Shown here in pieces: positions 18,270 to 62,132 of a DNA stretch of 64,000 nt; within the stretch, counting starts at the first letter, position 1; each line of letters begins with the position of its first letter. The notes under the pieces were generated by a model. It did not search any database and had not been told where the DNA came from. It saw only the letters and a program-made list of their open reading frames with translations. The stretch comes from Clostridia bacterium (GTDB lineage: Bacteria; Bacillota; Clostridia; Christensenellales; Borkfalkiaceae): contig JAFXHX010000009.1 of assembly GCA_017536205.1 (NCBI GenBank), positions 1,003 through 65,002 of the forward strand. The letters are read 5' to 3'. Made by a program: the position numbers and the translations under genes.

Positions 18270-18403
18270 CGCTTTAAAGTAATTTTGTTTGCCGTAGAAA
18301 GCAATTTAAAAGGGCTCCCGAAAATGTTTTTAGAATAAAAAGATTTTTGGGAAAAAGGAGCAACTGCGATATAGCCCTACCCTTAACACTTTAAGGGTTG
18401 AGA

Positions 18404-18664
18404 GTTATAGCAAGTTGCGACGCAAGCCCGCAGAAACAAGCACAAGCAGGCTCGACAACAAGGGGCACACAACTAACCTTTTTGGTTGTAGAAAGTGGCA
18501 TTTTAAGTCGTTAGAGCCAAGCAAGACAAGGCTCGACGGCAAGGCGTTGGGCGTAATTGACCTTGGTGGTCATTACGGTCACGAATTGACGGCAGTTAAC
18601 GCAGTATTGCGACGGCTATAACGAAATAAAAAGCACCGAAAACGGTGCTTTTTATGTCTTAAAA
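18404..18664 (+). repeat. structured intergenic element E1 (candidate ncRNA or MITE-like element) ending in an intrinsic terminator
   Basis: Positions 18500-18632 match 34693-34826 with 4 mismatches by manual alignment. Hairpins: 18552-18577; terminator GCACCG-aaaa-CGGTGC at 18633-18648 plus a T-run. 8-bp closing pair GTTATAGC (18404) / GCTATAAC (18615). Confidence 0.8.
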
Positions 18665-20041
18665 TTAAAGAAGTATTTTTTCGTTAACGTAACTAATAAC
18701 TTCTTCGACTGACATACGAACTTGTTCCATAGTGTCACGGTCACGAAGGGTTACGGTGCCGTTTTCTAAGGTGTCGAAGTCGATGGTTACACAATAGGGT
18801 GTTCCTATTTCGTCTTGACGGCGATAACGCTTACCGATAGAACCTGCTTCATCGTAAGTAACCATAAAGTATTTAGCAAGTTGTTTGTATATTTCTTTCG
18901 CCTTTTCGCCAAGGTTTTTCTGTAAGGGTAAAACTGCAACTTTATAAGCGGCGATTGCGGGGTGGAAATGCATAACTACTCTGGTATCGCCACCTTCTAA
19001 TTCCTGCTCGTCATACGCTTCGCAAAGGGTTGCAAGCATAAGTCTATCTGCACCGATAGAATATTCGATAACGTAAGGAATATATCTTTCGTTAGTGAAC
19101 GGGTCAAGGTAACCCATTGCTTTGCCAGAATATTCTTGGTGGCGTGAAAGGTCGTAATCGGTACGGTTGTGAATACCGTTAAGTTCAGACCAGCCTATTG
19201 GGAAAAGGTATTGAATATCGCAAGCCGCTTTAGCGTAGTGGGCAAGTTTATCGTGGTCGTGATAACGAAGGTGTTCTTCTTTAAAACCAAGCGCAAGCAA
19301 GAAGTCTTTTGCCGATTTTTTGTAATATTCGTACCACTCACCGTCGGTACCTTCTTTACAGAACCATTGATGTTCCATTTGTTCAAACTCGATAGTTCTA
19401 AAAATGAAGTTACCGGGGGTAATTTCGTTTCTAAACGCCTTACCCACTTGAGCAATACCGAAAGGCACTTTAGCACGGGTGGTGCGTTGAACGTTTAAAA
19501 AGTTAACGAACTCGCCTTGCGCAGTTTCGGGGCGAAGGTATATAACGTTAGTAGACTCGTCGGTTACGCCACGCGAAGTTTGGAACATAAGGTTAAAGTT
19601 ACGAATAGGCGTCCAGTTAAACTTACCGCAGTTAGGGCAAGCAACTTTGTGCTCGTCGATATACGCTTGCATTTCTTCTTGCGTGAGTTTATCGGGGTTA
19701 ACTTTACCCTTGCTGTGGTTTTCAATAAGGTTATCTGCCCTTTGGCGAGTTTTACATTCCTTACAGTCCATTTTAGGGTCGCTAAACGAAGCGGTGTGAC
19801 CAGACGCATCCCAAACGCGAGCGTTCATTAAAATAGCGGCGTCTACACCGAAACTGTTTTCGCTTTCTTGAACGAACTTTTTCCACCAAGCGCGTTTAAT
19901 GTTGTTTTTAACTTCAACGCCAACGGGGCCGTAGTCCCAAGTGTTGCCCATACCGCCGTATATTTCGCTACCGGGGTAGATTATACCGCGAAGTTTGCAA
20001 AGGTTAACGATTTTATCCATAGTAACTGCCTTTTTGTCCAT
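18665..20041 (-). CDS. glyQS: glycine--tRNA ligase (homodimeric class II)
   Basis: 458 aa with a typical GlyRS N-terminus ([20 protein letters not shown]). SD GAGGTG. Promoter TTGACA-17-TAAAAT. Confidence 0.95.
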
Positions 20042-34688: not shown

Positions 34689-34864
34689 TGATATTTTAAG
34701 CCGTTAGAGCCGAGCAAGACAAGGCTCGACGGCAAGGCGTTGGGCGTAATTGACCTTTTTGGTCATTACGGTCACGAATTGACGGCAGTTAACGCAGTAT
34801 TGCGACGGCTATAACGAAATAAAAAAGCGTGGCATCTAGCCACGCTTTTTTGTGTCTTAAAACT
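34689..34864 (+). repeat. structured intergenic element E2 with its own terminator
   Basis: Near-identical to the E1 core. Its terminator has a completely different stem (GCGTGGC-atcta-GCCACGC, 34827-34845) at the same relative position. Confidence 0.8.
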
Positions 34865-34867
34865 TTT

Positions 34868-35150
34868 AAGCCCGTAGAAACAAGTTAGGCGAGGCTCGCA
34901 ATTTTTGTTAGTTGTAGAAAGTGATATTTTAAGACGTTAGAAGCGAGCGAGAGAAGGCTCGCAATTTTTGTTGGTTGTAGAAAGTGATATTTTAAGACGT
35001 TAGAAGCGAGCGAGAGAAGGCTCGCGAAAAGGTACGGACACGATTGACCTTTGTGGTCATCGGGGTCGTAACTTTGAAGCAGAAACGCACTATCGCGACG
35101 CTTATAACGAAATAAAAGCACCGAAAACGGTGCTTTTATTGTACTTAAAA
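34868..35150 (+). repeat. structured intergenic element E3 (diverged paralogue of E1/E2) with terminator
   Basis: Shares the 5' AAGCCCGYAGAAACAAG with E1, the GTTGTAGAAAGTG..ATTTTAAG module, hairpins with altered but still paired stems, and the terminator GCACCG-aaaa-CGGTGC (35118-35133). Confidence 0.8.
34893..35018 (+). repeat. 63-nt tandem duplication (2 units, 1 mismatch) inside E3
   Basis: GGCTCGCAATTTTTGTT(A/G)GTTGTAGAAAGTGATATTTTAAGACGTTAGAAGCGAGCGAGAGAA occurs twice, followed by a third GGCTCGC at 35019. Confidence 0.9.
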
Positions 35151-56443: not shown

Positions 56444-57230
56444 AATAAATCATAATGTCTAAATAATCAACTATTTTTTCTTTTACAACTTGCACCGTAT
56501 ATTCATTTAAAAACTTAGCGTTTTTAACGTTTCGGCAGTCGTACTTGCAATCTTCTTCGCTTACGTATTCAATAGTAATAGTTAGCGGAAGTTCCATTTT
56601 TATGGGTTTTATTTGGCCACGTTTTTTATAACCTTTTGAAACTGCGTTATAAATGCTATTAAGCGCTTCTTCTTCGCTAAAACAAGTTGCGCTATCACGG
56701 CTATTTGCAATTTTAACTACTGCTGTTTCAAGGCCGTTATAGAACGATTTTGCTTCTTCGCAAGCGGCTTTATCGCCACTTGCTGCAACGCAAGGCACGT
56801 TATACACACCTGCATACACGCCCATTTGCGCTGTTTCACCCACCTTAATTCCGTTATAGTACCACCCTTTGATGGCTTCCCATAATTGAGTATGGTCGAA
56901 AAACGCATTTTCGGTTTTTGCCATTGCGTGCGTGCCTATCATAACGAAAGCATCAATCTCGTTCATATAGGGAGTAAGTTCCCAAGTAGGCAGTTGCACG
57001 GCACGAGAATCAAGCATACCTTTTATAAAGTTTTTGCCTGAAGCGTGCCCATCAACAACGTAAACCTTATCGGCACCACTATCAAATAGTGCACTAACTG
57101 CAACGTTTGTTTCTTTCATTAAACGCTCGGTTGCAAGTTTATATCCGTTAGACGTTTCGTCTATAACCATTTGCATATTAGAAACGTTAGAAACGCCTTC
57201 TAAATCGGTAATAATTAATGCGCTAGCCAT
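56442..57230 (-). CDS. M55 family metallopeptidase (D-aminopeptidase DppA-like)
   Basis: N-terminal ITDLEGVSNV and overall Peptidase_M55-like pattern. 262 aa. Confidence 0.6.
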   Translation of the reverse strand: MASALIITDLEGVSNVSNMQMVIDETSNGYKLATERLMKETNVAVSALFDSGADKVYVVDGHASGKNFIKGMLDSRAVQLPTWELTPYMNEIDAFVMIGTHAMAKTENAFFDHTQLWEAIKGWYYNGIKVGETAQMGVYAGVYNVPCVAASGDKAACEEAKSFYNGLETAVVKIANSRDSATCFSEEEALNSIYNAVSKGYKKRGQIKPIKMELPLTITIEYVSEEDCKYDCRNVKNAKFLNEYTVQVVKEKIVDYLDIMIY

Positions 57231-57232
57231 TA

Positions 57233-58582
57233 TTATTTACTCTCTTGTTGGTTAGCAGCGTTTTCAGTACCGTGCCATCTACCACCTTGTGCCTTATCAA
57301 CGTCACCTTCAAGAAGTTGTTCGTAGTTTTCGGCAACTTTTCTAAATGCTTTTGAATAAGCGTCGATAATTTCTTTATTAAACTTTTTAAACCAAGGAGC
57401 AGATACGCAATATTTCTTTTCAGATGGGTTAACGGCTTCGTCGTCTTTTCTAACGTCACGGTCGTTGAACGCAATACGGGTTGGCTTACCATTGTTGAAT
57501 AAGTCGAATTCTTTAAAGAACTTGTGGTTGTGTAAGCAGAAGTTTGCGCCTTCCCAAGCACCGAAAGTGCCACTAAACTCTGCAGTTAACGCTTCGCAGA
57601 AACGCTTTGCAGATAAACCACCAAACTTTTCAGGATAGTAAGCAAAGTGTGGAAGGTAATAACCACCCATGTGCGAGCCTTCTTCACGGTTAGGACGAAG
57701 TGGCTTTAAGCCTTCGATATCGGCAAGTGAATCGTAGAAATAGTCCATTGCCTTTCTAATTTCAGCAGTACGTTCGTCAAAGTATTTGAGTTGACCTCTT
57801 GCAAGAACTGAAGATACTTGGTTTGCCCTACCTTTGCAACCACCTAAACCGATGTGGTAGTAACCTTTAATTTCTTCGGCTTCAATAATGTTTTCGGGGC
57901 TATTTTTACCATAGTGACCAAATGCTAACGCACGTTCGTAAAGTCTTCTATCGTCGGTAACAACCATACCAAGTTCGCCTGCAGCAAATACTTTCATACT
58001 CATCATACTCATAGCGGCGATGTGACCAAACGTACCAACTTTTTTGCCTTTGTATAATGAACCGTGTGCGTGCGAGCAGTCTTCAATAACGTAAAGGTTG
58101 TGCTTGTTAGCAATTTCCATAATTCTATCCATATCGCAAGGATAGCCAAGGTAGTGAACTACAACGATTGCCTTAGTTCTTGGAGTAATGCACCTTTCAA
58201 GGTCGTCTGGGTCCATAGAAAGCATATCATTAATGTTGCAGAATACTGCCGATGCGCCAAAGTTAGCCGCTTGCGAAACGCTACCCCAGTAAGTTTTGGT
58301 GGGGCAAATAATTTCGTCGCCAATACCAAGACCGATGGCGAACATTGCTGCAGTTATCGACATAGTACCGTTGGTGTATGCGCAAGCGTACTTTCTGCCA
58401 ATCCATTCAGCGAATTCACTTTCGAACTTTTCAGTTATATCTTCGTAAGAGAACTTGTTAGCCTTAACGACTTCAACAACGTTATCTATATCTTCTTGGG
58501 TGATAATGGGCCACTTAAACATTTCCTCGGGCGCTTTTTCAGTAACAACAGGCGTACCGCCTAAAAGTGCTAATTTTTCCAT
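57233..58582 (-). CDS. DegT/DnrJ/EryC1/StrS family PLP aminotransferase, copy 1
   Basis: LALLGG..P N-terminus, PLP-lysine context SMMSMKVFAAGELG, 449 aa. Confidence 0.82.
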   Translation of the reverse strand: MEKLALLGGTPVVTEKAPEEMFKWPIITQEDIDNVVEVVKANKFSYEDITEKFESEFAEWIGRKYACAYTNGTMSITAAMFAIGLGIGDEIICPTKTYWGSVSQAANFGASAVFCNINDMLSMDPDDLERCITPRTKAIVVVHYLGYPCDMDRIMEIANKHNLYVIEDCSHAHGSLYKGKKVGTFGHIAAMSMMSMKVFAAGELGMVVTDDRRLYERALAFGHYGKNSPENIIEAEEIKGYYHIGLGGCKGRANQVSSVLARGQLKYFDERTAEIRKAMDYFYDSLADIEGLKPLRPNREEGSHMGGYYLPHFAYYPEKFGGLSAKRFCEALTAEFSGTFGAWEGANFCLHNHKFFKEFDLFNNGKPTRIAFNDRDVRKDDEAVNPSEKKYCVSAPWFKKFNKEIIDAYSKAFRKVAENYEQLLEGDVDKAQGGRWHGTENAANQQESK

Positions 58583-58594
58583 ATTTCTCTCCTA

Positions 58595-59509
58595 TTATTC
58601 TTCAATATTTAATAACTTCATCGCGTTGCCACGAACGAATTTGTAGTAATTTTCTTCGCTTATGTACTTGTCTTCTACCATACGGGTAAGGAACTCGTCA
58701 TACTCGAAGGGGTGAACGTTTGTTGCAGCGCAAACGTCTAAACCGAAAAGTACTCTATCAGAGAACTCTTCAATAAACCTTGCAGCGTGGTCTTTATCAC
58801 GCATTAACGCGCCCATGCCACTACCTGCAGACATATCGCAGTAAAGGTTGGGAAGTTCACGAAGCATTTCGGTTACTCTGCCAACGCCCTTTATGGGGGT
58901 AAGTGGCCAACCAAGCCTTATCTCGTCGTCACAGTCGCCAGATATTTCTGCCCAGAAAGTTTGCGAGTGACCAAGTATTTTAAGGTCGGGGTGCTTCTTC
59001 ATCATTTTTTCTAAACGGGGAAGACCTAAATCATCTCTAATTCCGTAGTAACCATATTTATCTTTAATGGTTGCAACGTGAATAGTTACGGGCATATCGC
59101 ACTTAGCACAATGATAAAAAAGGTTATCCATTAAGGGGTCGTCAATAGGCATATGAGCCGTAAGTTCACCAAGACCTTTTGCGCCTAAGTTTTTATAAAA
59201 CATAAGTTGTTCAGACAAATTAGCGTCTGGCCTGTTGCCGTGCGCCCTTGGGTCGACGTTACAAAACCACATAAACCTATCGGGGTGCTTGTCTGAAAGC
59301 AATTTCGCTTCTTGGTTAGTAAGCTGATAAGAGTGAACTTCGGGCGAAACGAGTGGTAAAAGTAAACCTTTTTCAATATTGAGCTTGTCGTATATTGCTA
59401 AAAGTTCATCATCTTGAATCATAGGTGCTAACGAGTTAACCCCGTCTGGACACAAGTGTTTGTACGGTGTAACGTGTGCGTGTATATCAATCTTTTTAAC
59501 TTGCTTCAT
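58595..59509 (-). CDS. amidohydrolase family protein, paralogue 1
   Basis: DIHAH metal motif. 304 aa. SD AAAGGAG. Confidence 0.75.
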   Translation of the reverse strand: MKQVKKIDIHAHVTPYKHLCPDGVNSLAPMIQDDELLAIYDKLNIEKGLLLPLVSPEVHSYQLTNQEAKLLSDKHPDRFMWFCNVDPRAHGNRPDANLSEQLMFYKNLGAKGLGELTAHMPIDDPLMDNLFYHCAKCDMPVTIHVATIKDKYGYYGIRDDLGLPRLEKMMKKHPDLKILGHSQTFWAEISGDCDDEIRLGWPLTPIKGVGRVTEMLRELPNLYCDMSAGSGMGALMRDKDHAARFIEEFSDRVLFGLDVCAATNVHPFEYDEFLTRMVEDKYISEENYYKFVRGNAMKLLNIEE

Positions 59510-59534
59510 AGTTTTCTCCTTTTTACCTACAAAT

Positions 59535-59598
59535 ATTATAGCATTACTAGAAAATATATCAATGGAATATTTTGCTACCTTGTAGCACTATATTGCTA
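59535..59598 (-). promoter_or_regulatory. promoter TTGATA-16-TATAAT plus two 14-nt direct repeats TAGCAA(T/A)ATA.. spaced 21 bp (candidate AraC-type operator)
   Basis: Sense strand reads TAGCAATATAGTGCTAcaagGTAGCAAAATATTCCATTGATA... 36 of 40 nt are identical to 62093-62132, at the same distance from the start codon. Confidence 0.6.
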
Positions 59599-59705
59599 TT
59601 TATTACTATTATATATAGTAATAAGGTTATTATTGTTTTAAAAATAGGGGTAAAACTCCACTTTTACATTAAACTTTATATAGCTTCACTTTTTTTAATA
59701 AAATT

Positions 59706-59736
59706 AAAAAGAACCGATAAAAATCGGTTCTTTTTT
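59706..59736 (-). terminator. intrinsic terminator between the two cassette copies
   Basis: GAACCGAT-aaaa-ATCGGTTC with T-runs. Confidence 0.8.
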
Positions 59737-59755
59737 CGTTTTAGTTAAACGCTAT

Positions 59756-61111
59756 TTATTTTTTCTTTTTTTGTTGGTTAGCAGCGTTTTCAGTACCGTG
59801 CCATCTACCACCTTGTTCTTTATCTATGTCACCTTCAAGAAGTTGTTCGTAGTTTTCAGCAACCTTTCTATAAACTGCAACGTAAGCATCAATACGTTCT
59901 TTATCAAACTTTTTAAACCAAGGAACTGAAATACAATATTTAGTGTTTGATTTATTGATTGATTCGTCAAGCTCACGAACGTCACGGTCAGCAAACTCTA
60001 TACGGGTTGGCTTACCGGTGTTGTATAAGTCGAACGTTTTGAAGAATTCGTGATTATGTAAGCAGAAGTTTGCGCCTTCCCAAGAGAAGAATGCACCGTT
60101 AAACTCTGCTCTTAAAGCTTCACAGAAACGCTTTGCAGATAAACCCTTGAATTCATCGGGATAATAAGCAAATTGTGGGCAATAGTAACCACCCATATGT
60201 GAACCTTCTGCTTCGTTGCAACGAAGGGGCTTTAAGCCTTTAATATCTGCAAGTGAATCGAAGAAGTAGTTCATTGCCTTTCTAATTTCAGCAGAACGTT
60301 CGTCGAAGTGTTTAAGTTGACCTCTAGCGAGCGCTGAAGAAACTTGGTTTGCTCTACCTTTGCAACCACCTAAACCGATGTGATAGTAACCTTTAATTTC
60401 ATCTGCAACTAGAATGTTTTGTTCGTTGTTAAGGTCGTAGTGACCAAACGCTAATGCACGTTCGTAAAGTCTTCTATCGTCGGTAACAACCATACCAAGT
60501 TCGCCTGCAGCAAATACTTTCATACTCATCATACTCATAGCGGCGATGTGACCGAAAGTACCAACTTTTTTGCCTTTGTATAATGAACCGTGTGCGTGCG
60601 AGCAGTCTTCAATAACGTAAAGGTTGTGCTTGTTAGCAATTTCCATAATTCTATCCATATCGCAAGGATAGCCGTGATAGTGAACTACTACGATTGCTTT
60701 AGTTCTTGGAGAGATTAAACGCTCTAAGTCGTCCGGGTCCATAGAAAGCATATCGTTGATGTTGCAGAATACTGCCGAAGCACCAAAGTTAATTGCTTGC
60801 GAAACGCTACCCCAGTAAGTTTTGGTGGGGCAAATAATTTCGTCGCCAATACCAAGACCGATAGCGAACATTGCTGCAGTTATCGACATAGTACCGTTAG
60901 TGTATGCGCAAGCGTACTTTCTGCCAATCCACTCAGCAAATTCATCTTCGAACTTTTTGGTAATGTCCTTACCCGAAAACTTGTTGTTTTCAACGATATC
61001 CATAACTGCATCTTTATCTTCTTGCGTTATGATGGGCCATCTAAAGATTTCTTTATCGGTAGCTAATTCTTGAAAGCTAGGACTGCCACCTAAGAGTGCT
61101 AATTTTTCCAT
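59756..61111 (-). CDS. DegT/DnrJ/EryC1/StrS family PLP aminotransferase, copy 2
   Basis: Paralogue of 57233-58582 with the same motifs. 451 aa. Confidence 0.82.
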   Translation of the reverse strand: MEKLALLGGSPSFQELATDKEIFRWPIITQEDKDAVMDIVENNKFSGKDITKKFEDEFAEWIGRKYACAYTNGTMSITAAMFAIGLGIGDEIICPTKTYWGSVSQAINFGASAVFCNINDMLSMDPDDLERLISPRTKAIVVVHYHGYPCDMDRIMEIANKHNLYVIEDCSHAHGSLYKGKKVGTFGHIAAMSMMSMKVFAAGELGMVVTDDRRLYERALAFGHYDLNNEQNILVADEIKGYYHIGLGGCKGRANQVSSALARGQLKHFDERSAEIRKAMNYFFDSLADIKGLKPLRCNEAEGSHMGGYYCPQFAYYPDEFKGLSAKRFCEALRAEFNGAFFSWEGANFCLHNHEFFKTFDLYNTGKPTRIEFADRDVRELDESINKSNTKYCISVPWFKKFDKERIDAYVAVYRKVAENYEQLLEGDIDKEQGGRWHGTENAANQQKKKK

Positions 61112-61130
61112 ATTTTTTATCTCCTATTTA

Positions 61131-62042
61131 TTATTCAATATTTAATAGTTTAATCGCGTTGCCACGAACAAACTTATAATAATTTTCTTCGCTTATATAC
61201 TTGTCTTCTACCATACGGGTAAGGAACTCTTCATACCTGTATTGATGAGTGTTAGAAGGTGCGCAAACGTCTAAACCGAAAAGCACTCTGTCAGAGAACT
61301 CTTCAATAAACCTTGCAGCGTATTCTTTATCGCGCATTAACGCGTTAAGACCACTGCCTGCAGAAAGGTCGCAGTAAAGGTTGGGAAGTTCACGAAGCAT
61401 TTTTACGATTTTACCGTCGCCTTCAACTTTGCTGTTCGGGTAAATAAACCTAGTTTCTTCGGTAACGTCGTCACCAAGTTCAGACCAAAACATTTGTGAG
61501 TGACCAAGTATTTTAAGGTCGGGGTGCTTATTCATCATTTTTTCTAAGCGTGGAAGATGCAAATCGTCTTTAATGCCGTAGTAACCGTATTGACTGCTCA
61601 TAGGCGCAATGTGAATAGTTACGGGCATATCGCACTTAGCACAATGATAAAAGAAGTTATCCATTAAAGGGTCGTCTGCAGGAATATTAGCGGTTACTTC
61701 GCCAACGCCTTTAGCGCCTAAACCCTTAAAGAACATAAGTTGCTCAGATAGTTCTGCCTTTGGGTTGTGGCCGTAAGCCCTTGGGTCTACGTTACAAAAC
61801 CAAACGAACCTATCAGGGTGCTTATCTGAAAGGAGTTTCGCCTCTGCACTCGTCGTTACGTACGAGTGATATTCAGGGGAAACAAGTGGTAATAAAACGC
61901 CTTTTTCAATATTGAGTTCGTCGTAAATTGCAATAAGTTCGTTATCGTCAACCATAGTGACTTTTGAAAGCATTGCGTTAGGACATAAGTGCTTATAAGG
62001 TGTAATGTGTGCGTGAATGTCTATTTTCTTAACTAGTTTCAT
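61131..62042 (-). CDS. amidohydrolase family protein, paralogue 2
   Basis: DIHAH motif. I prefer the ATG at 62042 (MKLVKKIDIHAH) with an AAGGAG SD. Confidence 0.75.
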   Translation of the reverse strand: MKLVKKIDIHAHITPYKHLCPNAMLSKVTMVDDNELIAIYDELNIEKGVLLPLVSPEYHSYVTTSAEAKLLSDKHPDRFVWFCNVDPRAYGHNPKAELSEQLMFFKGLGAKGVGEVTANIPADDPLMDNFFYHCAKCDMPVTIHIAPMSSQYGYYGIKDDLHLPRLEKMMNKHPDLKILGHSQMFWSELGDDVTEETRFIYPNSKVEGDGKIVKMLRELPNLYCDLSAGSGLNALMRDKEYAARFIEEFSDRVLFGLDVCAPSNTHQYRYEEFLTRMVEDKYISEENYYKFVRGNAIKLLNIE

Positions 62043-62067
62043 AACCCACTCCTTGTTGTCTATAATA

Positions 62068-62132
62068 ATTATAGACATTACTTAAATATATGTCAATGGA
62101 ATATTTTGCTACGTTTTAGCACTATATTGCTA
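62068..62132 (-). promoter_or_regulatory. promoter TTGACA-17-TATAAT plus duplicated direct-repeat operator
   Basis: Sense strand reads TAGCAATATAGTGCTAaaacGTAGCAAAATATTCCATTGACA-17-TATAAT. Confidence 0.6.

Follow-up and report, generated by a model that had tools for sequence, protein, structure and literature searches.

Three intergenic elements, E1, E2 and E3, lie at gene ends in the stretch of DNA analysed here, 64,000 nt of a Clostridia bacterium contig (JAFXHX010000009.1), to which we refer as the window. E1 and E3 adjoin the stop codons of glyQS and ppx, respectively. The three belong to a previously undescribed family found in uncultured ruminant-gut Clostridia, and we consider it probable, with some reservation, that this new family consists of lineage-wide, non-autonomous palindromic intergenic repeats, similar in kind to REPIN, ERIC and BOX, which carry portable terminators. 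There is direct support for the family as such, for its fold and covariation, its anchoring on stop codons, its single polarity, its species-specific occupancy and its ownership of the terminator module. The features at the two loci are as follows, with gene names taken from NCBIfam:

18285..18426, + strand: head module H, GGGCTCCCGAAAAT...GCAAGTTGCGACGCAAG, with two AT-rich hairpins; it replaces the TTTTAAG start of the next part-unit
18427..18499, + strand: part-unit before E1, with 5' arm, M hairpin and linker GTTGTAGAAAGTGGC, lacking the 3' arm; nhmmer match to model positions 4-92
18500..18664, + strand: E1, full unit of class a, made up of ATTTTAAG, 5' arm, M hairpin, 3' arm, terminator and GTCTTAAAA; covariance model score 126.7 bits
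18628..18653, no strand assigned: terminator module of E1, AAAAAGCACCGAAAACGGTGCTTTTT, 11 nt from the glyQS stop, with A-run and T-run on both sides
18665..20041, - strand: glyQS (glycine--tRNA ligase); its stop TAA (18665-18667) adjoins the end of E1
34693..34863, + strand: E2, full unit of class a, with its terminator module at 34821-34851 (AAAAAAGCGTGGCATCTAGCCACGCTTTTTT)
34864-34925 and 34926-34988, + strand: two tandem 63-nt part-units, each with TTTTAAG, 5' arm and linker; direct repeats of 83% identity
34989..35150, + strand: E3, full unit of class a, with its terminator module at 35114-35137; covariance model score 132.9 bits
35151..36665, - strand: ppx (Ppx/GppA-type exopolyphosphatase); its stop TAA adjoins the end of E3

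Modules, ends and fold of the repeat family

An iterated nhmmer profile search of the host assembly (labelled G000; 1.39 Mb, 14 contigs, 38.5% G+C, 93.5% complete) gave 80 matches, counting units and part-units, in 38 arrays. The arrays are composed of three kinds of modules: full units, part-units and a recurring head module of ~130 nt. Part-units consist of the 5' arm, the central hairpin and a linker of 16-25 nt such as GTTGTAGAAAGTGATA; the head module, as at 18285-18426, precedes at least 10 arrays of this genome, and where it occurs it always joins the unit start at AAG. The composite of part-unit and full unit seen at E1 recurs on contigs C8 and C2. Full units come in two classes. In class a, to which about two thirds of the arrays belong, those of E1, E2 and E3 among them, the unit ends with TATAACGAAAT, a terminator hairpin and TGTCTTAAAA; in class b it ends with TATAACGGCTTAAAA and has no hairpin, the nearest terminator lying at the far side of the array or in the next unit. 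Rfam searches with the window and with distant copies, at gathering and at lenient thresholds, returned chance terminator-driven matches only, with scores far below gathering.

Read from the sequence, the ends of E1 are ATTTTAAGTC at 18500-18509 and (T)GTCTTAAAA at 18655-18664, and those of E2 are ATTTTAAGCC at 34693-34702 and GTCTTAAAAC at 34854-34863, where GTCTTAAAA runs to 34862 and is followed by C. At the third element, ATTTTAAGAC occurs both at 34926-34935 and at the start of E3 (34989-34998), and GTACTTAAAA forms its end (35141-35150). A sequence-only reading of the window had proposed that an inverted repeat, ATTTTAAG.../...CTTAAAA(T), bounds each element, and this is the case for all three. 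It had further noted a stop-codon complement directly after E1 and E3 and an identical hairpin behind both genes. We confirm both observations: the open reading frames (ORFs) of glyQS and ppx start with TTA on the + strand, and the 24-mer AAAAGCACCGAAAACGGTGCTTTT is common to E1 (within 18628-18653) and E3 (35114-35137). The 10-mer CTTAAAATTA, to which the same reading drew attention, is indeed shared by the two junctions but is not distinctive alone, with 62 copies in the genome, 48 of them outside arrays. The left-end word TTTTAAGNCNNNAGA, in turn, occurs 40 times in the genome, every time inside an array of the family, and the end pairs ATTTTAAG.../...CTTAAAAT are retained in 54-59 of 60 copies from many genomes; the conserved ends of E1-E3 are therefore more than a product of chance.

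As element boundaries, the two ends behave differently. Homology stops at the right end, but at the left it stops at TTTTAAG only where two units adjoin directly. At E1, at E3 and in most arrays, family sequence extends upstream of the left repeat in the form of a linker, part-units or the head module, so that the left repeat marks a boundary at direct unit-unit junctions only. These junctions read CTTAAAA-C/G-TTTTAAG (n=6), CTTAAA-CA-TTTTAAG (n=2) and CTTAAAA-TTA-TTTAAG (n=1).

The fold was analysed with RNAalifold on an alignment of 60 units, taken from this genome and from about 12 further metagenome-assembled genomes (MAGs). The inverted repeat is conserved in the other copies. The full unit of ~135 nt folds end to end as one long imperfect hairpin, and 25 of the 34 consensus pairs show double compensatory changes (60 copies, ~13 genomes), for example in columns 28-121 (CG 31, UA 26) and 32-116 (AU 29, GC 19, UA 7). 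At the foot of the hairpin, TTTTAAGNCGTTAGAAAC pairs with GTTTATAACGGNTTAAAA, TTTTA with TAAAA and CGTTA with TAACG; inward of the foot, AAAC/GTTT alternates with TTGC/GCAA and AAGC/GCTT. Next comes a 7-bp box between the arms that is variable but compensated (GTTAGGC/GCCTAAC, GCACAAG/CTTGTGC, GTATTTC/GAAATAC, GTTGGGC/GCCCAAC, GTGTTTTAG/CTAAAACAC), followed by an internal loop of conserved sequence, in which AAGGCTCG faces GCAG(T)AAACG. A variable, likewise compensated arm ends in the conserved tip GACC-TTNTT-GGTC. The class a terminator branches off sideways from the basal stem, on its 3' strand. In part-units, which have no 3' arm, the rod cannot close. The terminal inverted repeat of 8-10 bp in the sequence-only reading is thus a true pair of conserved inverted ends, but it forms only the base of a compensated hairpin that spans the whole unit. 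A hairpin inside the 5' arm (GAGCC...GGCTC), first read by eye, was dropped, as it is the pairing of 5' arm and 3' arm that covaries.

Of the two strands, that of the element (antisense to the gene) has the more stable predicted fold in 42/42 copies of this genome, 94/101 copies elsewhere in the genus and 13/16 distant copies. The difference is 5-8 kcal/mol, of which shuffled controls attribute ~3 kcal/mol to base composition (G 25%, C 18%). Wobble counts favour neither strand: at consensus pairs, the ratio of GT to AC is 41:22 or 21:18, and minimum-free-energy structures contain 247 versus 310 G-U pairs.

The 24-mer AAAAGCACCGAAAACGGTGCTTTT has an A-run on one side and a T-run on the other and is predicted to fold with -17.6 to -19.4 kcal/mol on either strand. 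The E1 module is predicted to be terminator-like on the - strand (-18.9/-19.4 kcal/mol), and by sequence and predicted fold a GC-rich hairpin with a T-run lies directly downstream of the gene, as expected of an intrinsic terminator. In E2 this position is taken by another hairpin, GCGTGGCATCTAGCCACGC. Throughout class a, the hairpins are of a few recurrent types between conserved flanks, GAA(A/T)TAAAAAA and TTTTTT(A/G)TGT(C/T)CTTAAAA, and these types are concentrated in or near arrays rather than elsewhere (GCACCG 8 vs 1, GTGTGGC 7 vs 0, CACGGC 7 vs 2). In other species the same module is present, with covarying stems and a loop resembling GCATCNAGC. No other terminator is found between glyQS or ppx and their arrays.

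The hairpins behind glyQS and ppx belong to the family, because their types recur at unrelated genes and are rare elsewhere, and because empty orthologous sites carry unrelated native terminators; a native origin of the E1 and E3 hairpins was ruled out on the grounds of this recurrence and rarity. The hairpin behind both genes is repeat-borne and, judged by its sequence, a putative terminator. The proposal that the element supplies the terminators of glyQS and ppx accordingly holds in so far as the hairpin is family-borne, but the module is optional: it is absent next to the gene in ~14 of the 38 arrays here and in most copies of other species.

Placement, polarity and turnover

The position of the repeats relative to genes was determined for the arrays of G000 together with 93 arrays in loci from other MAGs, using convergent ORFs of at least 70 codons. 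Of 117 pooled arrays with a 3' part, 108 face a convergent ORF. The complement of its stop codon starts right after the end motif in 55 of these 108 arrays, lies inside TTTTAAG in 28 and inside a TTATAA block in ~12; only eight arrays have a gap of 1-7 nt. The anchored stop is TAA in 87 of 90 cases, compared to 80% genome-wide (P = 4e-6). Among orthologues with and without the element, the C-terminus of the glycyl-tRNA synthetase GlyRS (..K-I-x-L/F-stop) has the same length, and at the remaining alignable orthologous sites the stop position is unchanged, the ppx stop being placed as in the empty sites of G044 and G045. It follows that the stop codon on which the element sits is the native one and that the gene is not truncated.

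The genes at arrays include nrdD, rpsI, galE, sigE, trmL, yebC, jag, alaS, ppdK, rpmA, pyrH, rplQ, rplL, queA and uxaC. A restriction to highly expressed genes was ruled out, as the neighbours comprise nrdD, galE, sigE, trmL, yebC, queA and uxaC as well as genes for ribosomal proteins and tRNA ligases. Instead of a stop codon, two exceptional arrays adjoin a T-box leader's terminator and are placed between this terminator and the regulated ORF:

G000 C1:254156-254582 (locus L275:457-883): T-box array
G000 C2:45541-45895 (locus L276:342-700): T-box array

In the first of these, the T-box leader's own terminator stands precisely where the terminator module of the family would be. Read-through transcripts of both arrays would bear the reverse-complement hairpins in their 5' untranslated region (UTR).

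Distant relatives in other families of the order have different ends, which nevertheless pair (TGAACGGGTTA/TAACCCGTTCA, GTTTGAGGGCGC/GCGCCCTCAAAC, AAAAAAGTTAA/TTAACTTTTTT), and in 13 of 16 of these copies the convergent ORF has its stop at the 3' strand of the basal stem or within it. The ORFs concerned are queA, phosphofructokinase, infB, rbfA, V-ATPase subunits F and B, secY and an M24 peptidase. Two copies from different genomes, located at unrelated genes, share ...ATYGTTTGAGGGC (L269:996-1131, L270:1027-1162); here the last two codons and the stop are repeat sequence, and both host proteins end in Ile-Val-stop. Placement on the stop codon is thus a property of the family that does not depend on one DNA word. 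The persistence of this placement with unrelated end sequences speaks against a simple target word of the type TAA or TTAA, and a TTAA or TA target model is supported neither by the left flanks nor by the distant copies. An insertion next to TAA at gene 3' ends, as the sequence-only reading had it, is right in that stop adjacency is far beyond chance; TAA is not a fixed DNA target, however, since distant relatives with other ends (TGAACGGG..., GTTTGAGGGC...) still sit on the stop.

All 38 arrays of G000 oppose the majority gene strand of their contig, and all adjacent ORFs read towards the right end. As only 68-87% of the genes follow the majority strand, the probability of this outcome by chance is 0.73^38 = 6e-6. 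In other genomes, matches that share a contig are all co-oriented (29 contigs), as are 10/10 neighbouring pairs. We saw one exception, two back-to-back opposed units between the genes for V-ATPase subunits B (ntpB) and D (ntpD) in the distant genome G075 (C3; L266:1549-1858). The polarity may follow replication or the gene; the two are inseparable here, because housekeeping genes are themselves strongly leading-strand biased. Three contigs of G000, C6 (224 kb), C9 (89 kb) and C12 (28 kb), have no arrays, where ~9 would be expected from the genome-wide density. On C6, GC skew and gene strand switch from + to - at ~80 kb in a terminus-like manner, and a tyrosine recombinase gene is located at C6:80209-80673.

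A covariance model built from the alignment detects the family in 37 of the 38 species of the genus, with 0 to at least 86 copies, the scoring being capped at 86, and yields weaker full-length matches in 18 of 141 genomes (14 of 93 genera) of the order. In an exact-pattern scan of 185,579 species genomes, the genus-type left arm was found in ~13 MAGs only, labelled as Christensenellaceae, Clostridia or Clostridiales bacterium and in several cases obtained from yak, sheep or goat gut.

Of 38 orthologous site/genome pairs in the two closest species, whose genes show 80-83% nucleotide identity, 34 are empty. At the glyQS and ppx sites without the element, an unrelated native hairpin and T-run stand behind the stop; by a strict automated criterion, such a terminator is present within 25 nt at 13 of 30 empty sites. 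In G045 the glyQS site is empty, the stop being followed by AATC and then AAGGCGGATTTTTCCGCCTT, and G044 has three class b units between the stop and the orthologous native terminator. One unit each is found at this site in G046 and G021, and six further species have none. Some copies are old, since the queA copy holds an orthologous site across families of the order and has been retained in G000 (C13:101377-101674), G045 and two genomes of another family (L261:1501-1638, L262:1501-1633). The 3' strand of its basal stem encodes the last residues of QueA (..CLIL-stop).

Assemblies break inside the repeats, as in locus L051, whose contig ends 58 nt past ppx, and at two contig ends of G000 (C11:33, C13:2). 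C11 and C13 are probably adjacent, because both ends carry the same unit. Elsewhere in the window, a direct-repeat search found a ~2.5-kb tandem duplication at 57230-62132, with 78-94% identity between the copies.

Spread and function of the repeats

On the reading we prefer, units would have spread as DNA by means of a trans-acting, strand-polar machinery. With the right end on, or overlapping, the stop of the gene that reads towards it, the units build mosaic arrays in which full units are combined with part-units and head modules. About two thirds of the G000 arrays have an intrinsic-terminator hairpin that branches off 10-12 nt before the end and takes the place of the native terminator, which is how, on this reading, glyQS and ppx come to share one hairpin. 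Copies that have no terminator, located between a stop and its terminator or between the genes of an operon, would be transcribed in the mRNA of the upstream gene and could act there as 3' structure.

Several points tell against this reading. Neither G000 nor the six copy-richest genomes contain a Y1/RAYT gene, and the Y1 loci present in the genus are without the element. TTA is found on both sides of a unit at one junction only. No empty and filled alleles were found that are close enough for reading the junction at base level and, with it, a target-site duplication or an excision footprint: no genome of the genus is closer than 80-83% nucleotide identity, exact look-ups of the GlyRS and Ppx proteins for strain-level empty sites yielded identical intergenic lengths, and of the 80 loci that GlyRS matched in metagenomes, at 60-84% identity, none had the element. 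Finally, the retention of the queA copy across families fits function better than pure parasitism.

The search for a transposase partner covered Y1_Tnp (RAYT or IS200-type; Pfam PF01797). It returned no match in G000 and matches in just 9 of the 38 genomes of the genus, unrelated to copy number. A Y1/RAYT partner was rejected for its absence here, the missing tie to copy number and the element-free Y1 loci. Strand-polar placement, as of palindrome-associated elements derived from IS200/IS605, is seen in all 38 arrays, but such elements have neither terminal inverted repeats nor target-site duplications and occur with a Y1 TnpA, whereas here inverted repeats are present, no Y1 was found and the wobble counts favour neither strand. 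An autonomous partner with the same ends, as the sequence-only reading had envisaged, was not found in this 93.5%-complete assembly, where the left-end word occurs only inside arrays. G000 has three tyrosine recombinase genes, none adjacent to arrays; an integron attC site was rejected because of this, because the GTT and AAC words stand the other way round than in the attC core sites (RYYYAAC ... GTTRRRY) and because the neighbours are syntenic housekeeping genes.

It is possible, if unlikely, that the primary role of the repeats is that of a cis-acting mRNA 3' structure which starts at the stop, in a 3' UTR or between cistrons, and that mobility is secondary. By such a structure, the upstream cistron would be shielded against 3' exonucleases or against Rho, or else termination or the coupling of translation would be adjusted, and the repeats would persist thereby. 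The fixed polarity relative to the gene, the coincidence of the hairpin foot with the stop even where the ends differ, the conservation of the queA copy at an orthologous site across families and the maintenance of the fold by covariation are all in agreement with this, and terminator-less copies inside known operons (infB-rbfA, V-ATPase) must be part of the mRNA, so that for these the role is plausible. It cannot apply to E1-E3, because their bodies lie behind a terminator, which in terminator-bearing copies separates the body from the stop and leaves it outside the mRNA of the gene. Further, the strand that folds more stably is the one opposite to the gene (94/101 and 13/16 copies, about half of the gap being due to base composition), and occupancy is mostly species-specific.

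A second alternative, which we regard as quite improbable, follows from the proposal in the sequence-only reading of convergent small-RNA genes that share terminators with the mRNAs, a proposal that our results disfavour. Each unit would be a small-RNA gene directed towards the neighbouring gene, with its own promoter (TGnTATTTT, overlapping ATTTTAAG), and would end at the shared bidirectional terminator. Many units are preceded by an extended -10-like word, TGATATTTT or TGGTATTTT, but no -35 element accompanies it, and near the AT-rich end -10-like words occur on both strands, TGnTATTTT on the element strand and TTGTCT-18-TAAAAT outward on the gene strand, the same AT-rich word giving rise to the TAAAAT on the opposite strand. 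The terminator has a T-run in the element direction too, the unpaired regions are purine-rich, the structure covaries and it is the element strand for which the more stable fold is predicted. Yet the outermost stem strand, GTCTTAAAA, would lie beyond the terminator and remain untranscribed, and it is conserved all the same; ~14 arrays here and most copies elsewhere have no terminator in the element direction and would be read antisense into the gene. No Rfam family matches, and 0 to at least 86 copies at species-specific sites are unlike known small-RNA families.

Least of all do we expect a classical MITE (a miniature transposable element with inverted repeats), that is, a deletion derivative of a DDE-type insertion sequence (IS) that moves by cut-and-paste and duplicates a short target at TA, TTA or TTAA: the terminal inverted repeats, the small size, the AT-rich target context, the unit-unit junctions of 1-3 nt and the one unit with TTA on both flanks would suit it, but the genome contains no parent element with matching ends, no consistent duplication is seen, covariation extends beyond the ends through the entire interior, the stop position is kept with unrelated end sequences, and all 38 arrays, like the matches sharing a contig elsewhere, have one polarity, whereas BOX, RUP and SPRITE lie on the leading strand in just 61-63% of cases (PMC3049150). 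A classical element of the DDE type would not give such a shared polarity of all copies. The MITE-like element of the sequence-only reading is supported by the multiple copies, conserved inverted ends, stop adjacency and differing occupancy between close species, whereas the single polarity does not fit, and neither a partner nor a target-site duplication was found; with regard to the last, units show no consistent direct repeat and no close pair of empty and filled sites was available.

Returning to mobile, non-autonomous repeats, we would tentatively go one step further. The family may represent a polar, gene-end-homing mobile hairpin with an enzyme of its own, which needs neither RAYT nor a fixed DNA target word and which docks on stop codons and, in two instances, on T-box terminators; it might have been kept for long across the order as a portable terminator and 3' RNA structure. 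We consider this possible but doubtful.

Comparison with known repeat families

What is known of small palindromic repeats, among them REP, ERIC and BOX, comes mainly from Proteobacteria and streptococci, and for most of them, to our knowledge, movement and persistence are unsettled. For the study of these questions, the present family has the advantages of a sharp placement rule, one polarity, a detachable terminator and a copy series from 0 to at least 86 across 38 sister species. Three questions thereby become testable: by what the units are placed, whether they serve their hosts as terminators or as 3' structures of mRNAs, and which gene varies along with copy number. In practical terms, the repeats break MAG assemblies, contigs ending inside them, and many terminators in these genomes are repeat-borne.

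ERIC (enterobacterial repetitive intergenic consensus, also IRU) is a repeat of 127 bp. Like the present family, it is an imperfect palindrome over its whole length, of similar size, found in transcribed intergenic regions after ORFs and without a known transposase. The two are not related in sequence, and ERIC is not known to have a terminator module; we know of no report of stop-codon anchoring or uniform polarity for it.

Group IIC introns and some IS elements target intrinsic terminators or REP hairpins. They resemble the present family in being located beside terminator hairpins, in a fixed orientation to the terminated gene, and two of our arrays adjoin T-box terminators. Unlike them, however, the family has no coding capacity for an intron protein or transposase and no ribozyme domains (no Rfam match), and many of its copies lie between the stop and the terminator, not after it.

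REPINs, or REP-BIME, of Proteobacteria are mobilised by RAYT (TnpA-REP) (PMC3116915, PMC8266576). Similarities to these are extensive: extragenic hairpins at gene 3' ends, tens to hundreds of copies, compensatory change, mosaic arrays and mostly vertical persistence. The present family differs in that no RAYT/Y1 accompanies it, that it forms one structured rod of 135 nt with internal loops in place of two short GC-rich REPs, that it is base-precise on stops and has an optional terminator module, and that its hosts are Clostridia of the Firmicutes type.

BOX elements are modular (A-Bn-C), with ends that pair in the duplex, and SPRITE elements are terminator-like, enriched near gene 3' ends and proposed to be co-opted terminators, with no target duplication found (PMC3049150). 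The modular build and paired ends of our family are reminiscent of BOX, and its position, terminator likeness and missing target duplication of SPRITE. Yet the pneumococcal BOX, RUP and SPRITE elements have a loose coding bias (the 61-63% leading strand cited above) and a variable distance to genes (PMC3049150), whereas here the polarity is uniform in 38 of 38 arrays and the distance to the stop is zero in half of the arrays. Its stop-anchored foot, uniform polarity, detachable terminator module and lack of a RAYT set the family apart from REPIN, ERIC, BOX and SPRITE.

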